A DNA stretch of 64,000 nt from Escherichia coli (GCF_024223415.1 NZ_CP100500.1); one strand, 5' to 3'. Positions 36,032 through 36,583 are shown, counted from the stretch's first letter. The notes: generated by a model not told the origin, from the letters alone. A program made the numbers and translations.

Positions 36032-36108
36032 GCAGAATATTTTGCTGAAAAATGACGTTGGCCAACGCGGACGGATAACACGATATTCGACATAAATGAA
36101 TTTAAATA

Positions 36109-36354
36109 GTGAATAAAAGCAGAAACCCCGATTGTTGGTCGCAATCGGGGTTTTGTGTTTCTGGCAGTAAGTTATGGGAGGCTGCCTTGATTAATTTTAG
36201 CGGAGGAGACTGGATTGTGGAAGCTCTGAAATTGCTCGAAAGAAGTCCGGTTCTGAGAAGAATGTTTTATATAGCTCTTATAGTTATCGGAGCATTCGCC
36301 GTTGCGAAATCACTTCCGGGAATAGCTGAAATCATAAAGGCGCTGAATGCATAA
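36109..36354 (+). CDS. hypothetical small protein with C-terminal TM helix (start uncertain)
   Basis: Track ORF with hydrophobic C-terminus MFYIALIVIGAFAVAKSLPGIAEII; lies in the segment inserted between R and Rz. Confidence 0.3.
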   Translation: MNKSRNPDCWSQSGFCVSGSKLWEAALINFSGGDWIVEALKLLERSPVLRRMFYIALIVIGAFAVAKSLPGIAEIIKALNA

Positions 36355-36520
36355 AGAATACCTGGCTGAGGCTGACAAACAGGTCTCTGAATTGAAAGCT
36401 CCGGTAACCGATGACATCAGCGGAGCGGTGGCTTTTGCCATTAAGTGGGTGGCAGTCGGCGTTGCTATATCACCGGTACTGTATGGGCTGGCAAAGCTGG
36501 TTATTGCGTTGAAATCATAA
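36347..36520 (+). CDS. candidate 57-aa single-TM protein
   Basis: MHKEYLAEADKQVSELKAPVTDDISGAVAFAIKWVAVGVAISPVLYGLAKLVIALKS; overlaps the preceding stop; below the track cutoff. Confidence 0.3.
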   Translation: MHKEYLAEADKQVSELKAPVTDDISGAVAFAIKWVAVGVAISPVLYGLAKLVIALKS

Positions 36521-36583
36521 CTGTTACGGCCAGGTGATTCGTCGTGACCAGGAAAGTGCATTAGCCTGTTGGGGGATAGATCA

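Follow-up and report, generated by a model that had tools for sequence, protein, structure and literature searches.

Two overlapping small genes in a variable, recombination-shuffled slot between the endolysin and spanin genes of a lambdoid Escherichia coli prophage

In lambda, phage 21 and 933W, the Rz, terminase and structural genes located downstream in the late operon depend on the Q-modified late transcript, and in lambda the Rz1 gene is embedded within Rz. The lysis cassettes of the phage 21/DLP12 type follow the order S-R-Rz/Rz1, with an empty slot between R and Rz; this is also the form seen in E. coli MS20653 and JNE23-011. In P2, the membrane-protein gene lysA is located between the endolysin gene K and the spanin genes lysB/lysC; LysA is a much larger protein with several membrane spans, is non-essential for lysis and affects its timing. 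In 933W-type phages, such as Stx2 converting phage I (AP004402), the cassette shows an R-ant-Rz arrangement. PMC3594210 defines a moron, of which HK97 gene 15 is an example, as DNA inserted between two genes that lie side by side in related phages; in its classical form it brings its own promoter, is followed by a terminator of its own, and is expressed while the prophage is repressed. As described in PMC9239132, the 'releasin' gp25 of Mu (DUF2730, PF10805) is a 99-aa protein in which a cytoplasmic domain of 73 aa is attached to an N-terminal anchor; it is not a holin, it is tethered to the membrane, it acts on a SAR endolysin, and it also occurs together with other endolysin classes.

The locus considered here belongs to a lambdoid prophage contained in a 64,000-nt stretch of Escherichia coli DNA (NZ_CP100500.1), hereafter the window. 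Its closest known arrangement is the R-ant-Rz of the 933W-type phages, which has the same slot and the same leader with other cargo. The features of the region are as follows:

31457..31891, Q-like antiterminator gene, upstream of the cassette
33777-34009, three tRNA genes, between Q and the lysis cassette
34405..34620, + strand, class II (S21-type) holin, first gene of the cassette
35498..36031, + strand, R, lysozyme endolysin of the R21/RrrD family
35961..36036, + strand, repeat copy 1, the functional R 3′ end plus a fossil Rz start
36032..36121, + strand, AT-rich 'leader' (35.6% GC), conserved in Stx and other lambdoid phages irrespective of cargo
36122..36154, both strands, 14-bp hairpin of the intrinsic-terminator type, from a terminator scan
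36163..36186, + strand, second small hairpin, GGCAGU...GCUGCC
36217..36354, + strand, ORF1, 45-aa core, GTG start, with the Shine-Dalgarno motif GGAGGAG at 36202-36208
36347..36520, + strand, ORF2, 57 aa, PHROG 1115 family with an unusual N-terminus
36517..36592, + strand, repeat copy 2, a 67-nt untranslated remnant of the R 3′ end plus the genuine Rz start
36584..37051, + strand, Rz, inner-membrane spanin subunit, 155 aa, GTG start
36804..37010, + strand, Rz1, outer-membrane lipoprotein spanin subunit
38064 onward, small and large terminase and portal genes, downstream of the cassette

The genes on both sides of the segment are of familiar kinds. The holin matches PHROG 9876/20 'holin' (E 6e-34), and its identical 71-aa product in a related locus carries PF04971 (Phage_holin_2_1). 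R, whose end at 36031 had been correctly placed by the original prediction, matches the PHROG 7 endolysin (E 2e-62) and, in the PDB, 3hde/3hdf 'Lysozyme' and 4zpu 'Lysozyme RrrD' (E 1e-16). The catalytic pattern E-x8-D-x5-T can be read in its sequence as E35-x8-D44-x5-T50, and its N-terminus contains a weakly hydrophobic Ala/Gly-rich segment at residues 7-24 (YGLSAAVLALIAAGASAP; crude hydrophobicity +4.1). R thus has the characteristics of a membrane-anchored (SAR) endolysin of the R21/RrrD type, with predicted release from the membrane. Rz matches PHROG 13 'Rz-like spanin' over its full length (E 1e-72), and its start is identical to that of the RefSeq 'lysis protein' in E. coli MS20653. Rz1 is an ORF in the +1 frame of Rz with the lipobox MVVGC; together, Rz and Rz1 form a two-component spanin with the embedded architecture.

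In Stx2 converting phage I, the same slot lies between closely related R and Rz genes; the leader follows R directly, its first 52 nt being 96% identical to those of the window, a hairpin follows the leader, and an ORF for a mini membrane protein is located immediately before Rz. In contrast, its cargo consists of the 189-aa Ant and a 43-49 aa 'MSDKLIT' ORF (PHROG 4906) that is unannotated in the record, the hairpin has another sequence, no endolysin remnant is present, and the Rz N-terminus is different. The gene kinds of the phage 21/DLP12-type cassette are also those of our locus, but in the window R and Rz are 556 bases farther apart, and further cargo is located between the holin gene S and R.

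The segment also resembles a moron but lacks two of its defining features. Like HK97 gene 15, it is a horizontally spread insert in a late operon, has a lower GC content than its flanks and encodes small proteins of the inner-membrane type; it adds 556 bases between R and Rz relative to the empty sites of MS20653 and JNE23-011, and its composition deviates modestly, with 45.5% GC (42% in ORF1, 35.6% in the leader) compared with 50.9% in R and 53.0% in Rz. However, no promoter-like (sigma-70) site was found on the + strand at positions 36032-36583 by a simple consensus scan, which could miss a weak promoter. The only terminator-like hairpin precedes the genes, with none between the ORF2 stop codon and Rz, and, unlike a classical moron, the segment carries two overlapping micro-ORFs. 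As with Mu gp25, ORF1 and ORF2 are encoded in the lysis region beside a membrane-anchored (SAR) endolysin; they differ from gp25 in size (45-57 aa) and in the location of the hydrophobic helix, which is C-terminal, and neither matched any Pfam family, DUF2730 included, even at E <= 10. By description only, the arrangement recalls P2 lysA, since membrane-type genes lie between endolysin and spanin genes, although ORF1 and ORF2 are far smaller.

It had been proposed from the sequence that the Rz start normally sits within or next to the R 3′ end, and that here a second copy of this end, of ~65 bp and ~80% identity, at 36515..36583, precedes Rz. Comparison of the region with itself recovered one direct repeat around the insert, and the second copy is real, with different measures: the copies, 35961-36036 and 36517-36592, are 76 nt long, 76% identical without gaps, and 556 nt apart. 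They flank 480 bp of DNA located between R and Rz, and each holds the final 67 nt of R followed by the initial 9 nt of Rz (ATGAGCAGA in copy 1 and GTGAGCAGA in copy 2). The Rz start of copy 1 runs into a stop after six codons, while copy 2 retains the Shine-Dalgarno sequence of Rz, GGGGGA, 7 nt upstream of the GTG start. The 18-nt exact core of the repeat, ATTCGTCGTGACCAGGAA, has two sites only in the window, even when up to two mismatches are allowed, and the expectation from shuffled sequence was 0 matches.

Relatives without the insert identify the origin of copy 2. In the best-matching complete E. coli genomes, the cassette aligns as two pieces, with 2341 bases against 2897 query bases, so that about 556 bases are absent from those genomes. 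The cassettes of MS20653 and JNE23-011 have no insert and R overlaps Rz, as the original prediction had described for the normal junction. When copy 2 and the Rz start were aligned with this intact R-Rz junction, 80/84 (MS20653) and 79/84 (JNE23-011) positions were identical; copy 2 is therefore the remnant of the resident endolysin gene, still sitting before its own Rz. Nine other, independent contigs from isolates and metagenomes carry the full 552-bp segment, with 549-552 of 552 positions identical, which means that it is neither an assembly nor an alignment artefact, and it is a real, circulating allele. None of the 5426 complete E. coli genomes holds 80% or more of it. With a unique core and 0 matches expected, a copy 2 equal to a real R 3′ end and the recurrence in nine contigs, the probability that the duplicate is a misalignment, a chance similarity or an assembly artefact is negligible, and we found no support for it.

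The functional R gene is a mosaic. In 40-nt bins, the stretch 35658-35857 shows only 0-1 differences per 40 nt from JNE23-011, while the last ~50 nt of R and the leader are closest to the cargo-bearing E. coli E7-1N7, with 2-3 differences per 40 nt; copy 1 and the leader are identical to E7-1N7 at 93/100 positions. This change of affinity points to a homologous crossover inside R. The fossil Rz start that immediately follows the R stop codon is common to all leader-bearing phages, which indicates that the left boundary is old. The right boundary fuses the ORF2 stop codon to approximately codon 155 of R, and the join falls in a microhomology (CGTTGAAATCATAAC compared with CGTTCAAATAAC). Since the same right join is present in E7-1N7, it is a single earlier illegitimate event, older than the allele of the window. 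The segment was assembled on its left side by homologous crossover within R, and on its right side by re-use of the older, microhomology-type join between an ORF2-type stop and codon ~155 of R, which has since spread by homologous exchange. The empty-site junction represented by copy 2 and the mosaic R support the recombination footprint that had been recognized in the duplicated endolysin end, and we consider the anatomy and origin of the segment secure, with little room for doubt.

The first ~125 nt of the slot, comprising the leader and the terminator, are common to hundreds of Stx-type and other lambdoid phages. The first 52 nt of the leader are 96-98% identical in many Stx phages, its first 22 nt (GCAGAATATTTTGCTGAAAAAT) matched at least 120 IMG/VR stretches, and a diverged copy was found after a Salmonella GH19 endolysin gene. 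Because an A-tract precedes the 14-bp hairpin and a T-tract follows it, the hairpin scores as a terminator on both strands. In 15 variants taken from all contexts, 98.3% of the cells pair and three pairs are changed on both sides, compared with at most 63% pairing in slid controls, and the fold z-score is -3.95. This hairpin travels with the mini-genes in every context seen. The loop of the second small hairpin carries GGGAGG, 5 nt before the TTG at 36187; every cassette type has a small hairpin at this position, each differing in sequence. No RNA family was recognized in the slot by Rfam, even at a permissive threshold; the sole match, to a Brucella sRNA model (23.5 bits), was at chance level. 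By-eye inspection of the leader and the post-hairpin region for promoters gave sub-threshold candidates only. No obvious promoter was seen by eye in the homologous contexts.

The first small gene, ORF1, had been called as an 81-aa ORF, which proved to be an over-call. A start at GTG 36109 makes the frame cross the terminator hairpin (36122-36154), the upstream part is not conserved as protein, and the compensatory changes of the hairpin scramble this frame among relatives; we therefore rejected it. The conserved gene encodes the 45-aa core MEALKLLERSPVLRRMFYIALIVIGAFAVAKSLPGIAEIIKALNA from GTG 36217 or, also plausibly given its own GGGAGG 5 nt upstream, a 55-aa protein from TTG 36187. Each of these two in-frame starts has a Shine-Dalgarno-like motif, and the extension between them is free of basic residues. 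All six ORF1 homologues with DNA available begin with GTG-GAA-GC (MEALK; GTG-EALK) behind a GGAG motif; one of the homologues starts 12 nt past the stop of another gene, and another has the upstream block out of frame. The N-terminal extension xNFSGGDWIV is kept in distant homologues found by profile search and is absent or out of frame in others. Substitutions by codon position in three pairs, 1:4:11, 6:1:12 and 11:5:23, show a third-position bias. The family is tiny, with 8 clusters at 90% identity among 5.8 billion sequences, and a profile search of 1.84 billion representatives gave only 7 relatives, all equally anonymous. ORF1 had no match in PHROG, Pfam, NCBIfam or PADLOC. In several contexts, its stop codon overlaps the conserved ATG of the downstream partner, and this partner varies from context to context.

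In the window, the partner is ORF2, whose ATG overlaps the ORF1 stop (ATGCATAA) and whose 57-aa frame is as originally described. Residues 11-57 match positions 21-67 of the 67-position PHROG 1115 profile (E 1.1e-26, 93 bits), a phage family annotated as 'unknown function'; PHROGs 4493 and 3246 are also matched, as they are by the mini-proteins of the 'AFAIRIVA...IRWW' type. The relatives, every one annotated as hypothetical, form 90 clusters at 90% and come from E. coli, Salmonella and E. marmotae. They share a conserved core of ~38-40 residues, (V)TDDISxAxAFAIKWVAVGxAxSPxLYGLAKLxIALKS, in which the variable sites are distributed over the codon positions as 13:6:22. The 5′ end of this ORF2 is a frame-shifted version of the usual upstream region of the family, which encodes a basic N-terminus, and a deletion has removed the internal ATG typical of the family; this particular copy could therefore be impaired. 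Nevertheless, open frames and third-position bias are kept in both families, which is contrary to a segment that is noncoding in all homologues.

The AlphaFold (AF2) models are a single long helix for ORF1 (pLDDT 84.6) and for ORF2 (pLDDT 82.4); as plain helices, they add little information. The hydrophobic helix is located in the C-terminal half of each protein. On a crude Hessa-scale sum over 19 residues, ORF1 scored +2.5 and ORF2 +3.4, compared with +4.1 for the releasable anchor of the endolysin and -3.0 for the N-terminal anchor of Rz. By these marginal values, ORF1 and ORF2 are likely membrane proteins, but their helices are weak anchors and stable insertion is putative. The expectation of two small membrane proteins with C-terminal transmembrane helices within the lysis operon consequently stands for the two coding ORFs and the position of the helix, while the larger size of ORF1 falls and the hydrophobicity of the helices is marginal. 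A sequence search of the PDB gave no match for either protein, and neither matched a holin family in PHROG, Pfam or NCBIfam, whereas the cassette's own holin did.

To describe the slot in other phages, loci were fetched by the leader and the gap was measured from the leader to the HYRDNA motif of Rz. Among the matches listed, we counted 95 gaps, 73 of them unique, ranging from 360 to 1985 nt. About 80 related loci showed at least 14 cargo architectures, whose mini-proteins (28-57 aa) belong to seven families, and some slots add the 189-aa Ant, a 231-aa Rha/KilA-C protein or a 255-aa methyltransferase. In 933W-type Stx2 phage I, the slot holds ant and an unannotated ORF of 43-49 aa directly before Rz, and every non-empty slot examined has a mini-gene immediately upstream of the spanin gene. 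Pseudogenes occupy some slots (locus L019), and chimeras were found in which the N-terminal half of ORF1 is joined to the IRWW tail of another mini-protein family, or the ORF2 core follows an N-terminus from a different one. The pairing of an ORF1-family with an ORF2-family gene was absent from the ~80 IMG/VR gaps among the matches listed. Judged from the sequences of these loci, the slot is widespread and shuffled by recombination, and the segment is one of its rare alleles and not a one-off insertion. The literature searched mentioned neither these small genes nor a variable slot between R and Rz, and we found no experiment or publication on any of the mini-protein families.

Both families also occur elsewhere. 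ORF1 relatives were found between a GH19 endolysin and a DUF2514/Rz-like spanin gene, beside two other mini-genes; after a GH108 endolysin gene, close to a leader copy and an Ivy gene; at a prophage end, behind the tail gene J; and downstream of a baseplate gene. In Salmonella, ORF2 relatives precede Rz in a cassette with a lambda-type holin and a GH19 endolysin, where the leader has diverged and the hairpin is the same, and are also located between a GH24 endolysin and Rz, and one follows Ant in another cassette; others are found after tail-fibre-like esterase genes at prophage ends. We rejected a specific partnership of the mini-proteins with membrane-anchored endolysins, as the same families stand beside GH19 and GH108 endolysins, which are soluble.

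Since no promoter was seen in the slot and the slot is located between Q and the terminase and portal genes, ORF1 and ORF2 are probably expressed late, by Q read-through. The Q transcript must cross the hairpin and both ORFs, because Rz and the terminase and structural genes need it downstream. Q-modified polymerase would thus read past the hairpin, and the ORF1 and ORF2 proteins would be made late, alongside the holin, endolysin and spanin.

Regarding function, empty cassettes occur in many genomes, from which we infer that the cargo is dispensable for lysis. Our preferred reading, a tentative one held at somewhat less than an even chance, is that ORF1 and ORF2 may be accessory cargo of the inner membrane that serves exclusion or conflict, between phages or between phage and host. 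It is suggested by the frequency of empty cassettes, by families that are very variable and shuffled, by the presence of the same genes at the ends of tail operons, and by the company of Ant, Rha, methyltransferase and Ivy genes. Exclusion genes are normally active while the prophage is repressed; the absence of a visible promoter and the upstream position of the terminator argue for expression in the lytic cycle only, which counts against exclusion. PADLOC has no model that matches ORF1 or ORF2. The constant position of a mini-gene next to the spanin gene, and the presence of the families beside two unrelated spanin types, are also compatible with a role in lysis. For the explanation taken as a whole, i.e., a rare allele of a shuffled slot, of recombinational origin, with late expression and accessory membrane cargo, we see about an even chance of being right.

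The main rival to the conflict-cargo reading is lysis tuning, in which the helices would contact the pinholin, the endolysin anchor or the Rz anchor as accessory regulators similar to an antiholin, P2 LysA or releasin. The genes are part of the lysis cassette and probably share its transcript, their families recur at endolysin-spanin gaps with endolysins of three unrelated types and spanins of two, and a mini-gene adjoins Rz in each occupied slot, although this adjacency is mostly inherited linkage and not independent evidence. The ORF2 helix and the endolysin anchor are similarly weak in hydrophobicity on the crude scale (+3.4 versus +4.1), and the two in-frame starts of ORF1, each with its own Shine-Dalgarno motif, are reminiscent of holin dual starts. 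A membrane-tethered accessory protein that controls endolysin release has a precedent (PMC9239132). However, cargo-free cassettes are common and presumably functional, the same families follow tail genes or mark prophage ends far from lysis genes, their occurrence with soluble GH19 and GH108 enzymes shows no specificity for membrane-anchored endolysins, and no holin, antiholin or DUF2730 family is matched. Modulation of lysis timing is consequently possible, but it is not the best-supported reading, and we hold that ORF1 and ORF2 are unlikely to be lysis regulators. A broader form of this idea would make ORF1, ORF2 and at least five further families (28-57 aa), which travel with a dedicated hairpin, an unrecognized domain-shuffling superfamily of late micro-proteins that regulate the membrane events of lysis; weak helices such as that of ORF2 might, for instance, partition with the releasable segment of the pinholin or the endolysin, or with the spanin anchor. 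We consider it improbable; if true, it would be a new class of lysis regulators across unrelated lysis cassettes.

A reading that we judge equally improbable is that the segment is neutral debris of recombination between co-resident lambdoid prophages, with a functionless ORF1/ORF2 pair or an impaired ORF2. The frame-shifted basic N-terminus of ORF2 with its usual internal start deleted, the rarity of the allele among complete E. coli genomes and the pseudogenes in some slots are in its favor, and the nine other copies, 99.5-100% identical, are too alike to reveal selection. Nevertheless, diverged homologues of both families retain open frames, start signals and third-position-biased change, the overlap between the ORF1 stop and the ATG of its partner is conserved in several contexts, and the families persist across many phage backgrounds.

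In their size, single hydrophobic helix and paired overlapping genes, ORF1 and ORF2 resemble small membrane toxins and holin/antiholin pairs. By this analogy, they might be membrane-damaging peptides, either a toxin and its antidote or an extra holin-like pair that depolarizes the membrane, a reading that is very improbable, as no antisense RNA or promoter signature was seen, neither PADLOC nor any holin family gave a match, and the downstream partner of ORF1 changes between contexts.

The lysis cassettes of lambdoid and Stx phages are usually drawn with three or four genes. The loci compared here present the gap between endolysin and spanin genes as a busy exchange site of tiny, mostly unannotated genes for putative membrane proteins, which are widespread yet ignored in annotation. 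The present locus is also a clean natural case in which homologous and microhomology recombination between co-resident prophages would build a mosaic operon, here with the downstream translation signals preserved. If the small proteins change lysis timing, superinfection or the envelope, they would affect phage release and, in Stx phages, the release of toxin as well.

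Directly 3' of the terminator T-tract in the R-Rz slot, the region between the endolysin gene R and Rz, a second small hairpin was found in each cassette type.

Second small hairpins 3' of the terminator
36163-36186, the window
2421-2448, related locus L004
2127-2155, related locus L019
2466-2495, related locus L002

The sequences of these second hairpins show no relatedness between cassette types. That of the window carries GGGAGG in its loop, 5' of the TTG codon at 36187, and that of ORF2-type cassettes sequesters in its stem the Shine-Dalgarno region from which the next gene would be translated. 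At prophage ends, the mini-gene unit lies 3' of tail genes and is preceded by two tandem hairpins (L146, 2700-2790; L148, 2860-2935; L140, 3860-3935), of which the first is a T-rich terminator and the second the CCCCG...CGGGG hairpin, with a conserved spacer separating them.

In the window, the gap between the holin and endolysin genes holds cargo as well, namely a YdfR-like gene and an ORF convergent with it.

Features flanking the lysis genes in the window
32075..33178, minus strand, 367-aa gene between Q and the tRNA genes, porin-like in the matching contig L007
34625..35176, plus strand, gene for a DUF1327/YdfR-like protein of 183 aa (PHROG 2091)
35124..35384, minus strand, 86-aa ORF convergent with the YdfR-like gene (PHROG 2572; DUF1823-like annotation in related phages)
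37039..37191, plus strand, 50-aa ORF with a hydrophobic helix at its N-terminus (PHROG 11822, unknown function)
37225-37244, terminator-like hairpin 3' of the 50-aa ORF
37547..37741, minus strand, 64-aa ORF between the lysis cassette and the terminase (PHROG 949, unknown function)

The empty-site relatives have a truncated, pseudogenic form of the YdfR-like gene. There is a 13-nt overlap between the Rz stop and the 50-aa ORF, whose annotation in RefSeq relatives is hypothetical. The 64-aa ORF faces the late operon in convergent orientation. Three tRNA genes (tRNA-Met, tRNA-Arg and tRNA-Thr; 33777-34009) separate Q from the holin gene and are followed by two terminator-like hairpins (34017-34073); a weak isrK-like Rfam match at 34019-34078 is sub-threshold, scoring 18.7 bits where the gathering score is 50.

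A hydrophobic ORF of 43-49 aa (MISDKLITLAKILCVIVGISF..., PHROG 4906) is present but unannotated in the 933W-type Stx2 converting phage I (L018, AP004402), at about 2857-2993, between ant and Rz. Two mini-proteins are chimeric: P0100 joins the N-terminal half of ORF1 to the GKIRWW tail typical of another family, and in P0057 the ORF2 core is preceded by an N-terminus of 'AAKIIAVCRG' type. These chimeras point to recombination inside mini-genes of 30-60 codons.

The leader that follows R (..agcagaatattttgctgaaaaatgacgttgg..) also recurs in a different cassette, that of a GH108 endolysin (L142), at about 3719-3796, a short distance upstream of the gene for the lysozyme inhibitor Ivy (3977..4399). 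Its occurrence there suggests that the leader acts as a general recombination boundary.
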